Origin: an uncultured Christensenella sp.
Lineage (GTDB): Bacteria > Bacillota > Clostridia > Christensenellales > UBA1242
NCBI GenBank assembly: GCA_949282135.1
Contig: CASDOR010000001.1
Coordinates: 2,730-66,729, forward strand
Length of the DNA stretch: 64,000 nt
Reading direction: 5' to 3'
Positions 5,619 to 15,768 of this stretch are shown here, piece after piece. The position numbers were made by a program, and so were the translations under genes. Each line of letters opens with the position of its first letter. Position 1 is the stretch's first letter. The notes under the pieces are model-generated. The model saw only the letters and a list, made by a program, of their open reading frames with translations. It did no database searches and had not been told where the DNA came from.

Positions 5619-6408
5619 TGGAAGAGTGGTTGTTGTAACTGGGGCATCAAGTGGTATTGGTAGGGAAATCGCAAAATATTTTGCAAATAATGGAGATAAG
5701 GTTTTTGGACTAGCAAGAAGTAGTTTTGAGGAAGAAAACATAAAGTCAATTAGTTGTGATGTAACGATAAAAGAAAGTGTGAGGCTTGCGATAAAAGAAG
5801 TAATTACAAAAGAGGGGCATATTGATATACTTATAAATAATGCTGGGTGTGGAGTGTCAGGAAGTGTAGAGAATAGCGATATAGATGACATAAAAAATAT
5901 GTTTAATGTTAATTTTTTTGGGGCAGTAAGTGTTACACAAGAAGTTTTACCTTTTATGCGTGAACATGGTGGCGGAAAAATAATAAATACTAGTTCTGTC
6001 GCAAGTGTTATACCTATACCTTTTCAAAGCTTTTATAGTGCGACTAAGTCCAGTCTTGATATATACGCAAAAGCACTTAGGCTTGAAGTTAAACCATTTA
6101 ATATTGAAATATGTAACGTACTTGTTGGAGATACTAAATCTAATTTTACCTCTTCTAGAAAAAAATCTCAGAGAGATGAGGGAAGTGTGTATGAAGAGAC
6201 TGTAAAAAGGTCAGTTGAAAAAATGGAAAATGACGAGAAAAACGGAAAAGATCCAGTAAGTGTTGCAAAAACAATGTTTAAACTTTCGCTTAAAAAGAAA
6301 CTCCCACCAACAAAGACAGTTGGACTAAAGTACAAACTTATTGTTTTCTTAAACAAAATTTTACCTCAAAAATTCATGTTGTTTGTTGTATCAAAGCTGT
6401 ATTCCTAG
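5602..6408 (+). CDS. Short-chain dehydrogenase/reductase (SDR)
   Basis: TGASSGIG, NNAG and YxxxK (YSATK) motifs; start taken at ATG5602 after GGGAG. Confidence 0.93.
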   Translation: MAKSINGRVVVVTGASSGIGREIAKYFANNGDKVFGLARSSFEEENIKSISCDVTIKESVRLAIKEVITKEGHIDILINNAGCGVSGSVENSDIDDIKNMFNVNFFGAVSVTQEVLPFMREHGGGKIINTSSVASVIPIPFQSFYSATKSSLDIYAKALRLEVKPFNIEICNVLVGDTKSNFTSSRKKSQRDEGSVYEETVKRSVEKMENDEKNGKDPVSVAKTMFKLSLKKKLPPTKTVGLKYKLIVFLNKILPQKFMLFVVSKLYS

Positions 6409-6652: not shown

Positions 6653-8224
6653 TTAGCAAAATTTTTCTAGGTATTCTTGATAAGTGATATATTTGTCAAG
6701 AGTCTTAGTGTTATCTATTTTAATGATTCTATTTGCAACTGTTTGTGTAAGTTCTTGGTCGCTAGAACTAAAAAGTAAAACTCCTTTAAAGTTTATCATG
6801 CCTTTGTTAAGTGCTGTAATACTTTCGAGGTCGAGGTGATTTGTTGGTTCATCAAGAATGACAACATTTCCTTGCTCTAGCATTATTTTTGATAGCATAC
6901 ATCTAACTTTTTCGCCCCCACTTAGAACGTTTGCAGGTTTCAATGCTTCTTCTCCAGAGAAAAGCATCCTTCCGAGCCAACTTCTAAGAAAAGTAGTATC
7001 TTTTTCTTTAGAAAATTGACCTAGCCAATCAGTCAAGCTTAAATTTGTGTTAAAAATTTCATTATATTCTTTTGGAAGATAAGAATAGGTAATTGTCTTC
7101 CCCCAAGTGACTGTGCCAGTAAAGTCTTTATCTTTTCCAGATAATATGTTAAATAGAGCTGTAATAGCATTTGTATTGTCTGATAAAAAGGCGATTTTGT
7201 CATCTTTATTAACTACAAAACTAATATTTTCAAAAATACCTTTTTTTGTAAGATTTTTGACAATTAAAATATCATTTCCAATTTGTCTTTCAAAACTAAA
7301 AGCTATATATGGGTATCTACGACTTGATGGCTTGATATCTTCAATAGTAAGTTTTTCAAGTTCTTTTTTTCTGCTTGTTGCTTGTCTACTTTTACTTGCA
7401 TTTGCAGAGAATCTGGCAATAAAATCTTGTAATTCCTTTGCTCTTGCTTCTGCTTTTTTATTTGCTTCTTTTTGTTGACGTAAAATAAGTTGACTGGTTT
7501 CATACCAGAAGTCATAGTTTCCAACAAAAATTGAAATCTTACCATAATCGACATCGCAAATGTGTGTACATACCTTATTAAGAAAGTGTCTATTATGAGA
7601 TACTGTTATAACTGTGTTTTCATAGTTTAAAAGGAAATTTTCGAGCCAAGCAGTAGTTTTAATATCAAGATTGTTTGTAGGTTCGTCAAGAAGTAAAATG
7701 TCAGGAGAACCGAAGAGTGCTTGGGCAAGTAAAACCTTGACTTTAAGTTTACTATCTAAATCTTTCATTTTTGTGTCAAAGAATTTACTATCTATTCCAA
7801 TGTCTTTAAGCAAAGTCTCTGCATTTCCTTCCGCTTCCCAGCCTCCTAAATCTGCAAACTCTTGCTCTAATTCTCCGGCGAGTATTCCATCTTCTTCAGT
7901 AAAATCACTTTTAGCATATAATTCGTCTTTTTTGTCCCATACTTCCATTAGTCTTTTATGACCAAGTAAAACCGTGCGAAGTACAGTTTCATCATCATAA
8001 GCGTTTTGATTTTGCTGAAGTACAGACATCCTTTCATTTTTGTCTAGTATTATATCTCCATGACTTGGTTCAATTTCACCAGACAACAACTTTAAGAATG
8101 TAGACTTGCCAGCACCATTTGCACCAATAACGCCATAGCAATTACCTTTTGTAAATTTAAGATTTACATCACTAAATAATTTTCTATTTCCAAAATTAAG
8201 AGATACATTAATAACTTGTAACAT
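6653..8224 (-). CDS. ybiT: ABC-F family ribosome-associated ATPase, YbiT/YkpA subfamily
   Basis: Two NBDs, no TM; GANGAGKST, LLLDEPTNNLD, P-site tRNA interaction linker (FSANASKSRQATSRKK), LSGGE, ILDEPTNHLD. Confidence 0.88.
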   Translation of the reverse strand: MLQVINVSLNFGNRKLFSDVNLKFTKGNCYGVIGANGAGKSTFLKLLSGEIEPSHGDIILDKNERMSVLQQNQNAYDDETVLRTVLLGHKRLMEVWDKKDELYAKSDFTEEDGILAGELEQEFADLGGWEAEGNAETLLKDIGIDSKFFDTKMKDLDSKLKVKVLLAQALFGSPDILLLDEPTNNLDIKTTAWLENFLLNYENTVITVSHNRHFLNKVCTHICDVDYGKISIFVGNYDFWYETSQLILRQQKEANKKAEARAKELQDFIARFSANASKSRQATSRKKELEKLTIEDIKPSSRRYPYIAFSFERQIGNDILIVKNLTKKGIFENISFVVNKDDKIAFLSDNTNAITALFNILSGKDKDFTGTVTWGKTITYSYLPKEYNEIFNTNLSLTDWLGQFSKEKDTTFLRSWLGRMLFSGEEALKPANVLSGGEKVRCMLSKIMLEQGNVVILDEPTNHLDLESITALNKGMINFKGVLLFSSSDQELTQTVANRIIKIDNTKTLDKYITYQEYLEKFC

Positions 8225-8358
8225 GTTTCAATTCCTTTCTATTTATAGAGATATTACACGAAATATCTTAAATAGTCAATAAAAAGTATCTTTGCATATA
8301 AAATTTAAATTTTAAAACAAAAAAAACTAAGGTTAATAACCTTTGAAACTAGCAGATT

Positions 8359-8393
8359 AAAGAACGCTTTACCATTGTGATAAAGCGTTCTTT
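8359..8393. terminator. Hairpin just inside the left inverted repeat
   Basis: 13-bp perfect stem AAAGAACGCTTTA/TAAAGCGTTCTTT. Confidence 0.65.
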
Positions 8394-8413
8394 ATTAAAA
8401 TAAATTATTTCAT

Positions 8414-8458
8414 TTTGCAAATAAAATGTTTGCAAATTATAAACAAAAAGTGTATAAT
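8414..8458 (+). promoter_or_regulatory. Sigma-A promoter of the R-M operon with a candidate autoregulatory operator
   Basis: TTGCAA (8430-8435), 17-nt spacer, TATAAT (8453-8458); two TTTGCAAA palindromes (8414, 8429), the second overlapping -35. Confidence 0.6.
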
Positions 8459-8489
8459 ATGACTAATTAATTTATTTAAGGAGATTTTA

Positions 8490-8702
8490 ATGTCTATTTC
8501 ATATAATAAACTCTGGAAATTACTTATTGATAAAGGAATGACTAAAACGGAATTAAGATTAGAAGCGGATATAGGTACTTCAACACTTGCCAAACTTAGT
8601 AAAAATGAACAAGTGAGTATGGAAGTTTTACTAAAAATTTGTAAAACACTGAATTGCGATTTATCTGATATTGTTGAAGTAAAAGAGGTACAAAATGTGT
8701 AA
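8490..8702 (+). CDS. XRE/Cro-C1 (HTH_26-like) transcriptional regulator, likely controller of the cassette
   Basis: 70 aa, ISYNKLWKLLIDKGM...TLAKLSKNEQVSMEVLLKIC signature; AAGGAG RBS; overlaps the MTase start. Confidence 0.9.
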   Translation: MSISYNKLWKLLIDKGMTKTELRLEADIGTSTLAKLSKNEQVSMEVLLKICKTLNCDLSDIVEVKEVQNV

Positions 8703-9606
8703 ATGTGTTGCTAAACCATTTTTAAAATGGGCTGGCGGAAAAGGTCAACTTCTTGATGCTTTTGATAAAATCTTCCCACAAGAACTTATCAATGGAAAAA
8801 TTAAAACATACATTGAACCTTTTGTTGGCGGCGGTGCTGTTTTGTTTCATATATTACAAAATTACAAAATTGAAAAAGCATACATCAACGACATAAATAA
8901 GGAACTTATAAATTGTTATCGTTGCATTAAAGCTGATGTCGAAGAGGTTATAAAGCCATTAAGTATTTTAGAAAATGACTATCTATCTAGCGAAGATAGA
9001 GCCAAATATTTTTACAATGTGAGAGAGCGTTATAATCAAATTCACTTGAATGGTCACTATGATTATGAAAAATGTGCAGATTTTATATTTTTAAACCACA
9101 CTTGTTTCAATGGACTTTATAGAGTTAATAAAGATGGAAAATTTAATGTTCCACACGGAAAATATAAGAATCCTTTAATTTGCGATAAAGAAAATTTAAG
9201 ACTTTGCTCTCAGTTATTGCAAAAGGTTGAAATCAGTTTTGGAGATTATAGACAAGCCTTGTCAAATGCGGATAAAGATAGTTTTGTATATTTCGATCCC
9301 CCATATAGACCACTGATAGAAAATAATTCGTTTGTAAATTATGACAAAACCGGATTTGATGATAATGACCAGATTGAATTATCACAGAACTATAAAAAAT
9401 TAGATAAACAAAACTGCTTGCTAATGCTTTCAAATTCAGACCCCAAAAACACAAATGAAAATGATAACTTTTTTGATGACTTATATAAGGGCTTTAACAT
9501 TGAAAGGGTTTACGCAAAAAGAATGATAAATTGCCAGGCAAGTAAGCGTGGAAATATCACAGAAATAGTTGTTATGAATTACAAAAGGAGAAAAAATGAT
9601 GAGTAA
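8695..9606 (+). CDS. Dam/DpnM-family (D12 class) N6-adenine DNA methyltransferase
   Basis: KPFLKWAGGK, YIEPFVGGGAV, FNGLYRVN..G.FNVP.G and FDPPY motifs. Confidence 0.95.
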   Translation: MCKCVAKPFLKWAGGKGQLLDAFDKIFPQELINGKIKTYIEPFVGGGAVLFHILQNYKIEKAYINDINKELINCYRCIKADVEEVIKPLSILENDYLSSEDRAKYFYNVRERYNQIHLNGHYDYEKCADFIFLNHTCFNGLYRVNKDGKFNVPHGKYKNPLICDKENLRLCSQLLQKVEISFGDYRQALSNADKDSFVYFDPPYRPLIENNSFVNYDKTGFDDNDQIELSQNYKKLDKQNCLLMLSNSDPKNTNENDNFFDDLYKGFNIERVYAKRMINCQASKRGNITEIVVMNYKRRKNDE

Positions 9607-10423
9607 TATTGTTGAATTAAATGATGTTGAGATAAAAGAAAGTTTGGAACAATTATATAACTCTTTCGACAATGGATATGAATTTGAGCAATTTTTAAAA
9701 GTATTTTTAGAAAAAATTGGACTTGAAGAAGTAGTGGTGACTCAAAGATCTAGAGATGGCGGGATAGATTTAACTTGTGTTAAATCAGGCATCAATGGTT
9801 TATCAACTCTAGATGAAGTTAAGTATTATGTTCAAGCAAAACGTTTTAAGCCAAGTTCTACCGTTTCAATAAAAGATTTGAGAGAATTAAGAGGAGTTAT
9901 GCCTTTAAACTATAAAGGCATATTCATTACAACTGCTAAATTCCCTAGCGGAGCAAAAGAATTTGCGGAAGAAGACAACACAAGACAAATAATTTTAATT
10001 GATGGTAAAACTCTAATACAACAATGCATAACAATAGGTTTGGGATTTAATTTTAAACCAGTATTTGATGCAAACACCCTAGAAATTAAAACGTTAAACA
10101 ATCAGAATAATAACAATCCCAATGATAATTTTGTTTTTACTGTTAGTAAAAAAATAAGTTTAAATGATATACGGGCAAGAATTTTAAGAATTCCTTCTGA
10201 AATAGAGAAGGAACTTCCTCATGAAAAGTCTAATATAAATGTATTAATCAATGGCAAAGAATATAAATTAAACATCAATGCAGATAGAACTTATTTGGGC
10301 GGAGTGACCAAAATTTACAAAGATGAAGGTTTAATATTAGAAAATAATTTATATATATCCAAACTTGCAACATGGTATTATTCAAAAGAAAAAATAGTAA
10401 TAGAAATCAAAGGAGAAAATTAA
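9596..10423 (+). CDS. Mrr-like PD-(D/E)XK endonuclease with an extra C-terminal domain
   Basis: FEQF...RDGGIDL...YVQAKRF...GIFITTAKF...LIDG is the Mrr catalytic domain; ~110-aa unassigned C-terminal domain. Confidence 0.85.
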   Translation: MMSNIVELNDVEIKESLEQLYNSFDNGYEFEQFLKVFLEKIGLEEVVVTQRSRDGGIDLTCVKSGINGLSTLDEVKYYVQAKRFKPSSTVSIKDLRELRGVMPLNYKGIFITTAKFPSGAKEFAEEDNTRQIILIDGKTLIQQCITIGLGFNFKPVFDANTLEIKTLNNQNNNNPNDNFVFTVSKKISLNDIRARILRIPSEIEKELPHEKSNINVLINGKEYKLNINADRTYLGGVTKIYKDEGLILENNLYISKLATWYYSKEKIVIEIKGEN

Positions 10424-10425
10424 TT

Positions 10426-10965
10426 ATGATAAAAAATGGTAAAGGTGGTGGAAATACTAAAACGGGTTTGGTTTTTGAAGGAAGAGTTGATCTGTCCACC
10501 TTTTTAAGTCATCAACCGCATTATTCTATAAAGGGTCATGATGTTTATTTTGATAATGAGAAAGTCGCACGAGTATTTAAAAAGAATGATTTTTATTCAA
10601 TATTTCTTAAAGAATTGAATATTGATTGGACAAAATGTATATCTAAAAAATTATTGCCAGATGATAGCATTTTTGTATTACTAAACAATACTCTTTTTAT
10701 AATTGAATGTAAACATCAGCAAGTAGCAGGTTCGGTGGATGAAAAATTACAAACTTGTGATTTCAAGAAAAAACAATATAAGAAACTTATGGCACCAGCT
10801 AATATTGATGTCCAATATATCTATCTTCTTGATGAGTGGTTTAAAAACCCTAGATATAAGGATGTGCTAGATTACATTCAGTCTGTAGGATGCGACTATT
10901 ATTTTGAGTATATTCCATTAACAAAGTTAGGTTTGCCAGTTCCACCAGAAAATATTGAGGACTAA
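10426..10965 (+). CDS. PD-(D/E)XK nuclease, putative Type II restriction endonuclease (179 aa)
   Basis: LLPDD...IIECKHQ catalytic pattern; start at ATG10426 after AAGGAG; lies between two MTases. Confidence 0.75.
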   Translation: MIKNGKGGGNTKTGLVFEGRVDLSTFLSHQPHYSIKGHDVYFDNEKVARVFKKNDFYSIFLKELNIDWTKCISKKLLPDDSIFVLLNNTLFIIECKHQQVAGSVDEKLQTCDFKKKQYKKLMAPANIDVQYIYLLDEWFKNPRYKDVLDYIQSVGCDYYFEYIPLTKLGLPVPPENIED

Positions 10966-10967
10966 TA

Positions 10968-11687
10968 ATGGAAGAAAAATTTGAATTAGAAACCAATACG
11001 GTTTGGTCATTCCCAAATCGTGGTAAATGGGCAACGCATGATGCGAAATATCGTGGAAATTTTTCGCCTTATGTTGCCAAGAATATTATTTTACGTTATT
11101 CAAAACCAAATGACATTGTTCTGGATCAATTTGTTGGCGGCGGAACAACACTTATTGAATGTAAACTAAATAATCGTAATGCTATTGGCTTTGATATAAA
11201 TATAAAAGCTGTTGAGATAACCAAAGATAAATTAAATTTTGAAACTAAATATCAAAAAGATATAAAAGTAAATATTGGTGACGCTTGTAATTTGCAAGAT
11301 ATTGAAGATAATAGCATTGATTTAATTTGCACCCACCCACCTTATGCTGATATTATTAAATACAGTGAAGATATTGAAGGTGATTTATCTCATTTAAAAT
11401 ATAAAGATTTTCTTGTTGCAATTAAAAATGTAGCAAGTGAGTGTTTTAGAGTTTTAAAGAAAGATAAATTTTGCGCAATAGTTATGGGTGATACTCGCAA
11501 GAACGGAATGGTTCAACCATTAGGTTTTGAAGTTATGCAAAGGTTTATCAATGCTGGTTTCAAATTAAAAGAAATTATAATCAAAGAACAACACAACTGC
11601 AAGGCAACAGGTTTTTGGAAAACAAATAGTCAAAAATACAACTTTTTGCTTTTAGCACATGAGTATATTTTTATTTTTAAAAAGTAA
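10968..11687 (+). CDS. Second amino-methyltransferase (N4-C/N6-A DNA methylase family)
   Basis: DQFVGGGTT SAM-binding motif followed by THPPY catalytic motif. Confidence 0.88.
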   Translation: MEEKFELETNTVWSFPNRGKWATHDAKYRGNFSPYVAKNIILRYSKPNDIVLDQFVGGGTTLIECKLNNRNAIGFDINIKAVEITKDKLNFETKYQKDIKVNIGDACNLQDIEDNSIDLICTHPPYADIIKYSEDIEGDLSHLKYKDFLVAIKNVASECFRVLKKDKFCAIVMGDTRKNGMVQPLGFEVMQRFINAGFKLKEIIIKEQHNCKATGFWKTNSQKYNFLLLAHEYIFIFKK

Positions 11688-11698
11688 AAGGGGTAAAA

Positions 11699-13357
11699 AT
11701 GGATTTTGATTCAACGAATAGAAGTGTAAAAGAATTATTATCTGATAAAATTTTTAAAATTCCTATAAACCAAAGGAAATATGTTTGGTCAGAGCGAAAT
11801 TGGAAAGATCTTTTAACTGATGTATTTTTAGTTTGTGATGAAAATACAAAAGGACATTTTATAGGCAGTATAGTTTTAGAAGATAATGGGAAAAATGATG
11901 CGATTAAATTTTATAAAATAATTGATGGTCAGCAAAGGATTATATCTATTGTTATTTTATTATCGTCTTTATATCAAATTTATTTAGAAAAGGGAATGCT
12001 TAAGGAATCTGAAGCAATTAAAAGATACTGCTTTGCATTCAATTCAAATAATGATATGTTTTTTGTTTTGGAAAATGCTGAACCTGGATTAAAAGAGATG
12101 GTTATAGATGTTTTTTCTAAAACAGAAGCTTTTGACTTTATTTGGATTGAAAAACCTTTAAAAAATAAAAATAATGAAAATATTTTTAATGCATATAACT
12201 ATTTTTACGAACAATTAAAAAATAAAATATCTTTGCAAACAGATAAAAGAAAATATCTTTTAAAAATTTTTCAGACGATTATTGGTATTGATTATATTGA
12301 TGTTGTAACATCAGCAAGCGAAGATTCTTTTACCATATTTGAAATTTTAAATGCTAGAGGACAAAAACTTGAGGATTATGAGTTATTAAAAAATTTAGTA
12401 CTTAAATATTCGAAAAATAAAGAAGATACAAAAAATAAATGGCAAATTATATTGCAAAATGTAACAACAAAAGGTAAATGTTATATTAAAAATTTTATTA
12501 AACATTACAGCATGCACAAATATCTCAGTAAAAGTTATTCTTCTCCATATTTGGTTATTAGAGAAAATGTTGATAAAGCGAATATCGAAGATTTAATAAA
12601 TGATTTATTTGTAAAATCAAATATCTATAGAGAATTTTTGGCACCAGATGAAATAAATGAATCCGAATTACGCCGAAATATTTATGTGTTTTTTAATGCG
12701 AACAAACAAACACAATATCGTCCATTAATAATGAGTCTAACCAATCAGTTTAATAAAGGTCAAATGACTAAGGAACAATTTGACAATGCGTTGATATTCT
12801 TGAAAAAATATTTTATTTGCTTTACATTAATAAGTATGGAAAAGTCAAACAAAATAGAAAATGTTATTTATAAATATTCTAGCCTTTTAGAAAACAATTA
12901 CACTGATGAAAATTTGCGTGATTTAATTGATTCATTAAAAAATAAGTTTCCTTCAAAGATTTTGTTTTCTAAAAGGTTAGAAACTGTTGCATGGTCCCAC
13001 AAGCCAGATAGCCCCTACAATGAAGAAAAAATGAAGGAACGAATTAAAATAATATTTAATTTAATTGAAGAATTCAACACAGGCAGATCATGTATAGTCG
13101 ACTTTACAATTGAGCATATATTACCAGACGATGGTGGCGATACTAATTCAAAAATTGGCAATTTATTACCATTGGAAAGACATTTAAATGAGAGATGTAA
13201 AAATAAAACATTTTTAGAGAAGTTAAAGATCTACAACGAAAGTCAAATACAAAGTGTGAGAAAGTTTTGCACTATATATAAAAACCAACAATTTAGAATT
13301 GAATCAAGACATAACTATGTAGTAGACTTACTTTATGAAAAGATACTTACCTATTAA
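11699..13357 (+). CDS. DUF262-DUF1524 (fused GmrSD-like) endonuclease
   Basis: IPINQRKYVWS, IIDGQQRI and FEILNARG (DUF262); TIEHILP...IGNLLPL..HLN (DUF1524 HNH-like). Confidence 0.9.
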   Translation: MDFDSTNRSVKELLSDKIFKIPINQRKYVWSERNWKDLLTDVFLVCDENTKGHFIGSIVLEDNGKNDAIKFYKIIDGQQRIISIVILLSSLYQIYLEKGMLKESEAIKRYCFAFNSNNDMFFVLENAEPGLKEMVIDVFSKTEAFDFIWIEKPLKNKNNENIFNAYNYFYEQLKNKISLQTDKRKYLLKIFQTIIGIDYIDVVTSASEDSFTIFEILNARGQKLEDYELLKNLVLKYSKNKEDTKNKWQIILQNVTTKGKCYIKNFIKHYSMHKYLSKSYSSPYLVIRENVDKANIEDLINDLFVKSNIYREFLAPDEINESELRRNIYVFFNANKQTQYRPLIMSLTNQFNKGQMTKEQFDNALIFLKKYFICFTLISMEKSNKIENVIYKYSSLLENNYTDENLRDLIDSLKNKFPSKILFSKRLETVAWSHKPDSPYNEEKMKERIKIIFNLIEEFNTGRSCIVDFTIEHILPDDGGDTNSKIGNLLPLERHLNERCKNKTFLEKLKIYNESQIQSVRKFCTIYKNQQFRIESRHNYVVDLLYEKILTY

Positions 13358-13381
13358 ACTTTTTAAATTTTGGCAGTTAAA

Positions 13382-13511
13382 CGTGCGCTTGTCTTGATAC
13401 AAGTCGGTGTCGCTTCGCTCCACCGAAAGACAAGCACACGCTAATAATCCATTTGTGTTACAAAAAGAGCGGCTGCTGGCAGAGCGTAACGCAATCCGCT
13501 CTTTTGTTTTT
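13382..13511. other. Tandem GC-rich stem-loops after gmrSD-like gene (terminators or small-RNA candidate)
   Basis: Stem 13383-13395/13427-13439 (12/13) enclosing CGGTG/CACCG; second stem AAAAGAGCGG/CCGCTCTTTT (13463-13505) with T-runs on both strands. Confidence 0.6.
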
Positions 13512-13524
13512 TCTCTCTTTTTCT

Positions 13525-13552
13525 AGTATAAACGAATATTCTTTGTTGTCAA
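13525..13552 (-). promoter_or_regulatory. Near-consensus sigma-A promoter pointing leftwards into the hairpins
   Basis: Minus strand TTGACA-16 nt-TATACT. Confidence 0.55.
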
Positions 13553-13657
13553 GGTTAAAGTGAATGTCTAAAAATTTGCAAATTGAAAATTATAATAACA
13601 ACCTATGACAACGGCAGAAGTATTCGTTTTTTTGCAATTAAGAGAGAATTAAGTGCA

Positions 13658-13697
13658 AAAAGAAAACATAGGTGGTTTTTTACCTATGTTTCTCTTT
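13658..13697 (-). terminator. Hairpin just inside the right inverted repeat (probable terminator for yqeY-like gene)
   Basis: 10-bp perfect core AAACATAGGT/ACCTATGTTT with flanking A/T runs. Confidence 0.65.
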
Positions 13698-13786
13698 AAT
13701 ATTCTGCTAGTTTCAAAATTGCTTGACTAATTGCTAGCTCTTTTTAAATTAACTTTTTTAAACTGCATAAGACTTTATAATAAAAA

Positions 13787-14209
13787 TTACATTTCCTTAA
13801 GAGTCTTACTTACAAGTGCCATATCTACTTTTCCTAAGTAATTTTGTTTAAAATGTTTCATGACAGATGGGATTGACTTGTCATCAAGAGAAAGAATAAT
13901 ATTTTTTATTTCTGCTTCCTCTAACATCTTAGGTAGATAAATAGAAATAATTTCCTTTTGCTGAAGAATATTTTTAGATTGCTCTAGATTACCTGCCTTT
14001 TCATAACTTTCCGACTCGTCGGTCAGCTCTTTAATTGTTTTTTGAATAATTCTAATCATGTCCTCATCTGTCAATTCTTCGTTTTTTTCACGTTTTTTAA
14101 CTGTTTCAAGCATTGCTTTTGTCATAACGACTGAATATACCGCTCTTGCGTTTTGGTCTTTGTTTTTTAGTGCGACCATATTAGCACGTTTAATTTCATC
14201 TAAAATCAT
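13787..14209 (-). CDS. GatB/YqeY domain protein
   Basis: Helical 140 aa; ...MVALKNKD...LTDEDMIRIIQKTIKE...YLPKML...SVMK..K.GKVD pattern of YqeY. Confidence 0.85.
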   Translation of the reverse strand: MILDEIKRANMVALKNKDQNARAVYSVVMTKAMLETVKKREKNEELTDEDMIRIIQKTIKELTDESESYEKAGNLEQSKNILQQKEIISIYLPKMLEEAEIKNIILSLDDKSIPSVMKHFKQNYLGKVDMALVSKTLKEM

Positions 14210-14373
14210 CTTATCACTTCCTTTGCTTTATTATTTTGTTATATTTATTATAATTTGTCAATTAATTATGCACAATTATTTTCTTCCGTTTTATTTGTGT
14301 TTGTTTGACTAAAGCCATAAATTCATGTACAATTTTATTGTTAAGTTAGACAAACTATAGATAAGGGGGCAAA

Positions 14374-15768
14374 ATGAAAAGAGTAAAAAAATATTTGTTT
14401 TTGGCTTTAGTTTTTGTTGTTTTTCCACTTGTTTCTTTTGCGTGTAATGAGACAACCTTTGAGGATGTCCCATGGGGAAGTTCAAACTTAAGTGTAGAAG
14501 AGATTGTTTCTCAAGTGACTGCGAGTAAAAATGTTATGATTGAATCGGGCCTTGCTGTTGAATACAAAACTGTTACTACTTACAACTTCAAACAAACACT
14601 AAATAATGACTTTCAAAATAGAGTAGTTAGAGATGAGAAAACTACAATATTGTCAAATTGGAACTCGCAAAATGCTGTGGCAAAAGTCGAAAATTTAAGG
14701 TATATAGATGATATTTTGACTGAGACTTCTACTGAATATTATGTGAAATATCAAGGGCAAACAGGAGTTTCATGTTACCTTTATAGTGAGAATACGAGAT
14801 TAGTAAACGAGGCAGAGGTTACTACTTACAATAGAGAGAATTATAGTACAGTAGATAATCCTTTTCTGACTTTGCTTAGTGAAATAATTTATGATACGAA
14901 CATTACAGAAGTAAGTGTTGTTAGTGAAAAAGTTTTTGAAGAGGACTTGTACTATAGACTTACGTCTGAGGTGGGAGAACTTGCTGTTGTAAACAACAAA
15001 TTTAGTGAAAATGAGGATATTTTTTCAAATCCAAAATTATTTGAACTATATAACGAAACAGAAGATTATGTTATTTCTTTTAACTGTGAGTATGGACTAA
15101 ATGAGGCAGAGTATTTACAACATTTTGCACTATCTTATAATATTGAGAGAAGTAATGGCGTTTTTCATGAAAGAGAAACATATTTAAGTGTTAATTCTGT
15201 AACAACACTCTCTACGTATGGAAGAGATGTGGCGATTCCTTCTTCGCCAGAGAATGTTGATTTGTATACAGTTAGCGGATTTAAAGACTGTGTTTCAGAG
15301 GGCGATTCTTATATAACTTACCAAGACAATGCTTCTGGTCAAGGTCTTACAAATGAATATAGTGTATATAAAAAAGGTGATGACTATATTTTTAATGTCA
15401 GGGTTTATAATTCGCAAACAGCCGTTGGAGAAACTCAGCATTACTATGCATCTAAATTTAATGACGCCTTTACGATTTACCAAATTAATGTTGAAAATGG
15501 AACATATTATGATGTGACGAGCACAATTAATCCGCTTTTTTTAAGTTTTGATTATAATTTGGGTCTTGTAAATACCGACCAAGAGGAGGGAATATATCAA
15601 TTTGGTACGACAGAATCATATATAGAAATTAGATTAGTAAATGGTGAGGTGTATTCTGTTAAAACTCAAAATTCGGGAGCTCTTTATGTTGTGGAATATG
15701 GGTCAGGTATGCCAAGCGATGAAGTATTTTATGATATAGAAGATTTTGAATTTGTAGAAAGTGAGTAA
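14374..15768 (+). CDS. Hypothetical lipoprotein
   Basis: Basic N-terminus, hydrophobic core, lipobox-like VSFAC; acidic Tyr/Asn-rich mature part. Confidence 0.8.
   Translation: MKRVKKYLFLALVFVVFPLVSFACNETTFEDVPWGSSNLSVEEIVSQVTASKNVMIESGLAVEYKTVTTYNFKQTLNNDFQNRVVRDEKTTILSNWNSQNAVAKVENLRYIDDILTETSTEYYVKYQGQTGVSCYLYSENTRLVNEAEVTTYNRENYSTVDNPFLTLLSEIIYDTNITEVSVVSEKVFEEDLYYRLTSEVGELAVVNNKFSENEDIFSNPKLFELYNETEDYVISFNCEYGLNEAEYLQHFALSYNIERSNGVFHERETYLSVNSVTTLSTYGRDVAIPSSPENVDLYTVSGFKDCVSEGDSYITYQDNASGQGLTNEYSVYKKGDDYIFNVRVYNSQTAVGETQHYYASKFNDAFTIYQINVENGTYYDVTSTINPLFLSFDYNLGLVNTDQEEGIYQFGTTESYIEIRLVNGEVYSVKTQNSGALYVVEYGSGMPSDEVFYDIEDFEFVESE

Follow-up and report, generated by a model that had tools for sequence, protein, structure and literature searches.

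How do six genes come to lie between two exact inverted repeats in a bacterial chromosome when no gene for their mobility accompanies them? The question is raised by a locus in the genome of an uncultured Christensenella species (GenBank assembly GCA_949282135.1; 1.25 Mb in 29 contigs, ~31% G+C and 97.5% complete), which we have analyzed within a window of 64,000 nucleotides, i.e., positions 2,730 to 66,729 of contig CASDOR010000001.1; coordinates given below without a contig or locus name are those of this window. Between the genes for an ABC-F ATPase (6653-8224, minus strand) and yqeY (13787-14209, minus strand), the 15-mer TTTGAAACTAGCAGA occurs exactly at 8342-8356 on the plus strand and, as its exact reverse complement, at 13703-13717. 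The two copies enclose six open reading frames (ORFs), which encode an XRE-type helix-turn-helix (HTH) protein, a Dam-type D12 methyltransferase, a Mrr_cat nuclease, a PDDEXK_11 nuclease, an N6_N4 methyltransferase and a GmrSD enzyme. An earlier, sequence-only reading of this DNA had described the locus as a non-autonomous and insulated cassette of defense genes that is moved or inverted in trans. Our analysis suggests that the 5.4-kb segment from ~8329 to 13730 probably belongs, as a non-autonomous member, to a family of integrative elements that are mobilized by large serine recombinases (LSRs) and lie for the most part inside intrinsic transcription terminators.

The ends of the cassette

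The inverted repeat is unlikely to be a product of chance, in that TTTGAAACTAGCAGA has three matches in the window with up to two mismatches, against 0.35 expected, and none of 100 shuffled sequences reached three. The part of the 15-mer that is conserved in the family consists of its first 12 bases, TTTGAAACTAGC, and the additional AGA is peculiar to the copy in the window. Conservation of the ends extends 13 bp outward of each 12-mer, to an AA dinucleotide at 8329-8330 on the left and at 13729-13730 on the right. The left element end (8331-8353, plus strand) is made up of an inner 11 bp, GGTTAATAACC, and the invariant 12-mer (8342-8353), and the right element end (13706-13728, minus strand) of the invariant 12-mer (13706-13717) and its own inner 11 bp, ATTGCTTGACT. 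Host DNA follows on either side, as an A-run ending in T and then the junction AA on the left (8309-8330), and as the junction AA, TTGCTAGCTC and a T-run on the right (13729-13750). The same dinucleotide is found exactly 11 bp outside each 12-mer in other cassettes of the family: AA is present on the left in 38 and on the right in 39 of 46 cassettes, and a variant, AT, in six at either end. The statement in the sequence-only reading that no target-site duplication is visible therefore needs to be qualified by the presence of the same AA at both junctions.

When the two ends are joined, they form a 48-bp pseudo-palindrome of the layout 12 + 11 + AA + 11 + 12, of which the distal 12 bp are invariant. 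In the solved structure of an LSR bound to its attP, the site is likewise pseudo-palindromic; its 25-bp half-sites lie around a dinucleotide at the center, and their distal bases are contacted by the zinc-ribbon domain (PMC3783163). The half-site deduced here, of ~24 bp and with its invariant part distal, fits this layout, and the ends of the window cassette have the form of the two halves (P' on the left, P on the right) of a pseudo-palindromic attP of ~50 bp with a shared central dinucleotide; the host flanks correspond to the B (left) and B' (right) half-sites. Serine-recombinase elements as a rule have direct repeats of very small length at attL and attR (PMC5704250). An inverted repeat arises at the ends because the half-sites of a pseudo-palindromic attP separate to the two ends upon integration, and the 15-bp repeat most likely represents such half-sites surviving in the attL and attR of a recombinase-less derivative. 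Sites of the Xer/dif (pdif) type were also considered and set aside, as neither end shows, by eye, the 11-6-11 dyad of a 28-bp site.

Inward of both ends lie the hairpins that the sequence-only reading had pointed out, and both stand out on folding. The left one (8359-8393) has a folding energy of -17.0 kcal/mol (z = -6.8) and the right one, T1 (13658-13697), of -16.9 kcal/mol on the plus strand and -16.5 on the minus strand (z about -5). The sequence of the hairpin inside the left 12-mer varies among cassettes and its presence is constant, and the position of T1 corresponds to that of the terminator which follows the recombinase gene in autonomous relatives of the cassette.

Distribution and mobility of the cassette family

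The six ORFs that the sequence-only reading saw between the repeats are there, but they are not all that is enclosed: a non-coding module of ~350-370 nt (13370-13717), of which that reading made no mention, lies between the repeats as well. The genome holds two paralogs of this module, 74-77% identical to it, and both end at the 12-mer. Altogether there are six copies of TTTGAAACTAGC in the 1.25 Mb of the assembly, all at the ends of what amount to three cassettes and each with a hairpin of a different sequence 3-12 nt inward. A genome-wide search for the repeat, as the sequence-only reading had advised, thus did not reveal a common repeat, a regulator site or a fragment of 16S. The 22-mer CGAATATTCTTTGTTGTCAAGG, which is part of the module, has exact matches at no fewer than 118 loci in genome contigs of uncultured Clostridia. 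In 72 of 80 loci that were fetched with their surroundings it is followed within 260 nt, usually at ~150 nt, by GCTAGTTTCAAA with up to one mismatch, and where enough upstream DNA is present an inverted TTTGAAACTAGC is found 0.8-4.2 kb upstream of the module. At least 47 complete cassettes of 0.8-4.2 kb, bracketed by the pair of 12-mers, could be delimited in dozens of genomes of uncultured Clostridia, and the module or its most conserved hairpin, hp2, is present in 22 of 301 sampled genomes of the order, across at least eight families. The family is apparently both widespread and undescribed, and no relevant description of the cassette sequences or of a terminator-loop target was found in the literature that was searched.

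The cassettes are mobile. Pairs that are 94-99% identical over their whole length of 1.2-2.0 kb occur in different genomes between flanks that lack similarity even by tblastx. The proposal, made from the sequence only, of an insulated non-autonomous cassette that is moved in trans has good support. The yqeY/ABC-F interval tells a similar story. It measures 5.6 kb in the window genome as compared to 17-250 bp in most species of the genus, and in the closest relative (G018), whose ABC-F is 96% identical, it is a gap of 218 bp without the 12-mer. Another genome (G015) has at this place a 2.3-kb cassette with the same ends and other cargo, i.e., genes for a small HTH protein, a 261-aa protein and an FtsZ-like protein, lodged inside the stem GAAATAG/CTATTTC. 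Comparison of this interval in relatives, which the sequence-only reading had recommended, therefore yielded both an empty site and different cargo between the same ends. The insertion site is polymorphic for presence and absence of a cassette, at an interspecies divergence too high for the exact junction to be read. The flanks of a second cassette of the window genome are likewise adjacent to one another in G018. The yqeY/ABC-F spacer is also occupied, in four genomes (G020, G017, G006 and G014), by unrelated inserts of 480-790 bp with a small minus-strand ORF, and hence appears to be a general hot spot and not one for the cassette family alone.

Several species have small inserts of their own in this spacer, which is variable across the genus, and this variability is one of the observations that would be accounted for if the cassette were itself immobile and its ends and module served as a docking scaffold, where cargo is replaced through homologous recombination following the uptake of DNA, as happens in the pneumococcal DpnI/DpnII cassettes and the minimal mobile elements of Neisseria. 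The module, with its ~350-370 nt, would provide the homology for such exchanges on one side, and the outer flanks of the window copy, which do not match each other (see below), fit an exchange event. Homology at the left end, however, amounts to only ~25 bp, and whole cassettes with group-specific 11-bp inner end segments recur between unrelated genes and within different stems. The latter requires insertion at new sites, which homologous recombination cannot found. We therefore think it quite unlikely that exchange of cargo on a fixed scaffold explains the family, and consider that homologous recombination may well act in addition to the site-specific insertion that we favor.

The target: loops of intrinsic terminators

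Outside the conserved ends, the sequences that flank the cassettes differ from one cassette to the next and are complementary to each other, an A-run and ~7 nt on the left being answered by the matching 7 nt and a T-run on the right; the left-flank consensus of the family reads as an A-run, a variable stem of 7 nt, and AA. In 63% of 46 cassettes the two flanks pair with one another over a perfect run that includes at least three G-C pairs, as compared to 4% of shuffled left/right pairings. Moreover, 35 of 37 cassettes lie right next to a gene 3' end (median distance 18-28 nt), 20 of these being between convergent genes. From the complementarity of the flanks and the position at gene 3' ends it follows that the cassettes occupy the loops of intrinsic terminators, and most of them sit inside such a terminator hairpin. 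At the window locus, TTGCTAGCTC and the T-run of the right flank are the right half of the yqeY terminator and are orthologous to CTAGTCTTTTT in G018. The inward hairpins would then be cassette-borne terminators that replace the split host terminator and at the same time insulate the cargo; we read the left hairpin as a terminator with both of these roles, and T1 as the replacement terminator of yqeY.

The orientation of the cassettes relative to their neighbors also bears on inversion, the second mode of movement envisaged in the sequence-only reading. Perfect inverted repeats that bracket a segment with promoters inside it could be the sites of an invertase, and flipping the segment could switch the expression of the cargo or of a neighbor. 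No invertase is found nearby, however, and with terminators at both ends flipping would change nothing obvious. The end that carries the module lies beside a gene 3' end in 32 of 37 cassettes, versus 23 of 37 for the other end, and the attP half-sites already account for the repeat. Nothing in our results points to inversion, to which we assign next to no probability.

Recombinase-bearing relatives

Domain searches of the six cassette proteins, the Resolvase, Recombinase and Zn-ribbon domains included, found no recombinase or transposase domain in any of them, in agreement with the sequence-only reading. A search of the genus with the genome's own large serine recombinase brought to light weaker homologs that lie next to matches of the module. 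An LSR gene is present ~60-250 nt upstream of the right 12-mer at loci L175, L176, L182, L183 and L184, and at a sixth locus, L185, beside a variant end. Elements that encode an LSR thus have the same ends as the window cassette, and the recombinase flanked by the same sequence that had been suggested as something to look for does exist in relatives, in elements that are complete at L175 and L184 and seen at their right end only at L176, L182 and L183.

The element at L175 (in genome G009) is a complete one of 6 kb that lies beside an aminoacyl-tRNA synthetase gene within the host stem GCCC/GGGC. Its left end reads as an A-run, GCCC, AAGG... and TTTGAAACTAGT, and its right end as ...GACTAA, GGGC and a T-run. 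The element has an internal inverted repeat, and its LSR, a 501-aa protein in which the domains Resolvase, Recombinase and Zn_ribbon_recom are found, is read from one of the two arms; the right 12-mer follows ~130 nt after the stop codon. Also present are hp2 and a rolling-circle replication protein (Rep) of family PF23343. Homologs of this LSR for which contexts were fetched are 72-89% identical to it. At L182, L183 and L184 the LSR gene is directly followed by a terminator, the 12-mer and ...GACTAA; the element at L184 is a complete one of 7.7 kb with type I restriction-modification cargo, inside the stem TCACAGC/GCTGTGA. The Rep gene lies directly upstream of the LSR gene at L183 and L185. 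Among proteins of known structure (PDB), the catalytic domain of the LSRs of these relatives matches the TP901-1 integrase and a clostridial conjugative-transposon recombinase. At L185 (9509-9600) the LSR, 72% identical to that of L175, is followed by the reverse complement of a left-type end, ATTTATAGCCCTT, with a variant 12-mer, TTAGAAACTAGT. Different end types and variants of the 12-mer therefore exist, and they may mean different specificities.

The module of the window cassette is collinear with L175 apart from two blocks. The matched pieces are hp2 (13371-13440 in the window, 3251-3319 in L175, 94% identity), the arms of the internal inverted repeat (13509-13592 and 5746-5831, 72%) and the right end (13684-13731 and 7537-7583, 75%). 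What separates these pieces in L175 is 2.4 kb with two small genes and Rep, and then 1.7 kb with the LSR gene; the corresponding distances in the window are ~70 nt and 90 nt. The window cassette has thus kept the sites that act in cis and has lost the functions that act in trans. As it encodes no LSR, it is not itself an autonomous LSR element; it has the makeup of a derivative in which attL and attR are retained, the genes for recombination and replication have been lost, and an autonomous relative can be named.

Linkage of an LSR gene to these ends at six independent loci also bears on a different kind of enzyme. The ends might be read as imperfect terminal inverted repeats of ~26 bp, and the AA as a 2-bp target-site duplication in a preferred palindromic target, so that the cassette would resemble a miniature inverted-repeat transposable element or other non-autonomous transposon moved in trans by a DDE transposase. 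Terminal inverted repeats, an identical short dinucleotide at both ends and the lack of an internal enzyme all have this appearance, and the genome does have one DDE_Tnp_1 gene, a 646-aa frame that nearly fills a contig of 2016 nt (C24 of the window assembly, G000) and is probably a collapsed insertion sequence. This contig, however, lacks the 12-mer, no DDE gene was seen in the cargo of 47 cassettes, and no transposase gene bounded by the same terminal repeats was found. The DDE_3, rve, IS110 and Y1 families are without a match in the genome. Other candidates that were considered fared no better: IS110 bridge-RNA, IS200/IS605, IS630 and rve-type transposases are absent from the genome, and TnpB has a sub-threshold match only. 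A DDE transposase as the mover of the cassettes is, in our estimation, very improbable, and an LSR remains the enzyme that we favor.

Proposed mechanism and its difficulties

In the mechanism that we propose, autonomous elements of 6-8 kb would comprise cargo, hp2, often a rolling-circle Rep, and an LSR of ~500 aa that is expressed from one of the two sides of the internal inverted repeat. In the excised circle, the substrate of this enzyme would be a 48-bp attP, GCTAGTTTCAAA-N11-AA-N11-TTTGAAACTAGC, which it would recombine with an attB that is the loop of an intrinsic terminator, i.e., an A-run, a stem of ~7 bp, AA, the other strand of the stem and a T-run, and the crossover would take place at the AA. 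Integration would leave the attP half-sites at the ends of the element and the halves of the host terminator just outside, and the terminators inside the 12-mers would restore termination for the flanking host genes and shield the cargo. The copy in the window has lost its Rep and LSR blocks and kept attL, attR, hp2 and the promoter/operator region; with these blocks gone, it could move only with a cognate LSR supplied in trans, probably together with a directionality factor.

Several observations weigh against this account. A first set concerns the window copy itself, whose outer flanks (8309-8330 and 13731-13750), unlike those of most cassettes in the family, do not pair with each other. At the window cassette the yqeY terminator lacks its left half, AAAACAAAAAAAAC standing in its place, and a genome-wide search for this missing partner did not find it. 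The non-pairing flanks may record a past rearrangement between cassettes. (AAAACAAAAAAAAC resembles the left flank of the copy on contig C29.) The "empty" site of the second cassette in G018 keeps 12 bases resembling those of the right end, TTGTATGACTAA, possibly a scar, and loss of that cassette may therefore not have been a clean excision. A contig of the same species with an empty site was sought in a metagenome scan and none was found, the best match being 73% identical. A second set concerns the enzyme. No LSR of the linked clade is present in the window assembly (97.5% complete), and the single LSR that this genome has, next to a tRNA gene which it abuts, is 36% identical to that clade. 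Five other genomes with cassettes were examined; three have no LSR match, and the full-length matches in the other two are only 44% identical, with a 58% identical fragment in one of them. Lastly, typical LSRs are sequence-specific for attB; with stems that vary from one site to the next, the features recognized in the putative attB would have to be the A/T tracts, the loop or the shape of the DNA.

The genome's only LSR, a protein of 571 aa (C2:18694-20420, L180), has its gene end inside or against an opposite-strand tRNA gene. An ortholog in G013 is 96% identical to this LSR, which is probably part of some other integrated element. Homologs of the genome's own recombinases were not found beside cassettes at any of 80 loci. 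Recombinase-less derivatives seem to outnumber autonomous copies in assemblies, and many close LSR homologs are found on short contigs, so autonomous elements may, at a guess, be under-binned.

A bolder extension, which we offer only tentatively and which may well prove wrong, would see in this system a multi-target serine integrase whose attB is a structural class, i.e., any bidirectional terminator with AA in its loop, together with recombinase-less satellites that are still active, being excised by the LSR in trans, copied by Rep from hp2 and reinserted into new terminators. If true, this would amount to an integron-like pool of self-insulated, ready-to-express accessory genes, including defense genes, in gut Clostridia with small genomes. 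Short of this extension, the favored account explains how an inverted repeat can bracket genes without a mobility gene, as serine-integrase attP half-sites on a recombinase-less derivative. The element also appears to split a terminator in its loop and to replace it on both sides, which would be a new way of choosing a safe harbor. Such a choice is of interest to the biology of mobile elements, and may be so to genome engineers who seek serine integrases with unusual or relaxed target rules. More broadly, gene flow among uncultured gut Clostridia with reduced genomes seems to include the shuffling of single insulated units that carry restriction-modification systems, GmrSD or ordinary metabolic genes.

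The non-coding module

The module of the window cassette begins with hp2 (13372-13445, minus strand; -36.2 kcal/mol, z -6.1), a hairpin with a GCGAAGC apex and a one-sided bulge, which is the most conserved piece of the family: copies from several families of the order are still 80-97% identical. Indels in the MAFFT alignment stood in the way of a useful consensus fold, and copies were folded one by one instead; the minus strand proved to be the more stable one in 37 of 51 copies in which the strands differ. Its co-occurrence with Rep/LSR backbones, its extreme conservation and its GCGAAGC mini-hairpin make hp2 a candidate cis-acting origin for the family's Rep. The next feature, hairpin 1 with its T-run (13466-13515, plus strand), has an unexceptional energy (z -0.14); we read it as a putative terminator that closes the plus-strand cargo operon because it is conserved across 67 copies and not because of its energy. 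The internal inverted repeat, or "arms" (13522-13626), comprises CGAATATTCTTTGTTGTCAAGG (13533-13554), which on the minus strand is a consensus promoter, a spacer that is specific to the cassette and includes ATTTGCAAAT, and TGACAACGGCAGAAGTATTCG. In autonomous relatives the arms lie immediately upstream of the recombinase gene.

Rfam covariance models gave no match to the module at E values up to 1 (searched over 8000-14500) and none at the gathering score at paralogous loci. That the module might be a 5' leader or riboswitch was suggested by the many cargo genes that are co-oriented with the module promoter; this idea was set aside, as hp2 is found without that promoter and beside Rep/LSR backbones, and some cargo has its own promoter. 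Copies of hp2 (~65 nt, with the GCGAAGC apex) also occur without 12-mers, at L021 (G009), at L020 (G012) and in many genomes of the order sample, where they adjoin other hairpins and other LSR subtypes. Searches for the module in a plasmid collection and in viral contigs were negative, apart from one record of a 57-kb phage with an hp2-like stretch of ~70 nt only (MT835493.1:30531-30598). It thus seems that hp2 is a module common to several element families.

Cargo of the window cassette and of the family

Cargo in the window cassette is preceded by a promoter region (8405-8489, plus strand) with two direct TTTGCAAAT boxes (8414-8422 and 8429-8437), TATAAT and a ribosome-binding site. All six genes are on the plus strand. 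The first encodes a 70-aa XRE/Cro-type HTH regulator (8490-8702; HTH_26, 2.6e-18), which we read as controller-like, and is followed by the gene for a Dam-family (D12 class) N6-adenine DNA methyltransferase (8695-9606; 2.8e-61, and TIGR00571, 1.2e-85). Two nuclease genes come next, one of the Mrr_cat (PD-(D/E)XK) family (9596-10423; 1.8e-24) and one for a small nuclease-like protein with a weak match to the PDDEXK_11 family (10372-10965; 6.1e-06), and then the genes for an N6_N4 class DNA methyltransferase (10968-11687; 2.6e-31, and MTase_II, 4.3e-109) and for a GmrSD-type (DUF262/DUF1524) type IV restriction enzyme (11699-13357; GmrSD_N 7.3e-33 and GmrSD_C 3.7e-07). The TTTGCAAAT motif has nine matches in the window against 3.2 expected, and occurs once more as the palindrome ATTTGCAAAT (13574-13583), in the spacer between the module arms. 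Because the motif is present both in the cassette promoter and between the arms, the 70-aa HTH protein may control its own operon as well as the module promoters.

The 47 complete cassettes differ greatly in their cargo, which consists mostly of singletons, with genes for SDR, UDG-like, HaeIII restriction-modification, Mrr, leucine-rich repeat (LRR) surface protein, aminotransferase, peptide deformylase, NUDIX, GNAT, PnuC and ABC transporter proteins. Overall it is mostly metabolic or housekeeping-like with some restriction-modification systems, which does not bear out the notion of a slot specific for defense genes in the sequence-only reading. The second cassette of the window genome, which runs across a contig gap (C11:58868-59197 and C23:1-1875; L008 and L006), carries a small HTH gene, a UDG-like gene and an FtsZ/tubulin-like gene, and this cargo recurs in three other genomes at 98-99% identity (L035, L042 and L090). 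The third (C28:1-2100, L007, perhaps together with C29:74246-74580) carries NUDIX, SDR and histidine-phosphatase genes that are driven from the module promoter. It adjoins a defense-like gene (C28:2095-6210), the 1371-aa product of which is a fusion of a helicase and an MTES_1575 nuclease domain.

Comparison with known systems

Elements that use an LSR, as the autonomous relatives of the cassettes do, include the clostridial integrative mobilizable elements and transposons Tn4451/Tn4453 (TnpX) and Tn5397 (TndX) and the serine-integrase prophages A118, TP901-1, phiC31 and Bxb1. The family resembles them in that its ends make up a pseudo-palindromic site of ~2 x 24 bp, centered on a dinucleotide which recurs at either junction (PMC3783163). 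It differs in its target, which is not one gene or sequence but the loops of many different terminators with variable stems, in the replacement terminators that it carries at both ends, and in a backbone where the LSR is accompanied by a G2P-type rolling-circle Rep and a conserved hairpin. Cis-mobilizable elements (CIMEs) are decayed integrative elements that keep attL and attR and have lost the integrase and transfer genes (PMC5704250), and the window cassette, with both att sites and cargo, no recombinase, and collinearity with autonomous relatives minus defined blocks, is like them in these respects. A CIME, however, is usually a lone decayed remnant at one tRNA or gene site, whereas the cassette derivatives form a large and diversified family at many sites. 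Their shared and conserved cis module suggests continued selection for mobility or expression and not plain decay. The recombinase-less pseudo-SCC (staphylococcal cassette chromosome) elements of staphylococci are a second CIME-like example.

Among systems with recombinase-less cargo, the pdif modules of Acinetobacter plasmids are bounded by short inverted sites and carry diverse cargo, including toxin-antitoxin and resistance genes; on these plasmids the host Xer system makes use of the pdif sites, which are XerC/XerD sites of 28 bp (11-6-11) (PMC6449649, PMC13141974). Likeness to the cassettes lies in the discrete recombinase-less modules and their short inverted boundaries, and differences in the lack of the dyad at the cassette ends, in the linked enzyme, which is a serine recombinase, and in the location, which is at chromosomal terminators. 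Integron cassettes share with the family the many small and promiscuous units of one or a few genes, the diversity of cargo and a recombinase encoded elsewhere. The cassettes described here have neither attC nor IntI, their ends lie 1-5 kb apart and enclose the cargo, and they are mostly solitary, each with its own promoter, leader and terminators, so that an integron origin was rejected. Other elements also treat extragenic palindromes as a safe harbor: group IIC introns insert after terminators and IS1397 in the loops of palindromic units. ISPpu9, of the IS110 family, inserts in repetitive extragenic palindromic (REP) sequences (PMC12288879). These hairpin-targeting elements belong to other enzyme classes, and no IS110 transposase is present in the window genome; moreover, the cassettes lie in the terminator loop and not after the terminator. 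An LSR integrative element with a recombinase-less derivative is known in principle, and in this respect the suggestion, made from the sequence only, of a possibly undescribed architecture needs to be refined. The features that appear to be undescribed are the terminator-loop target, the built-in replacement terminators, and the large recombinase-less population that shares a conserved cis module.

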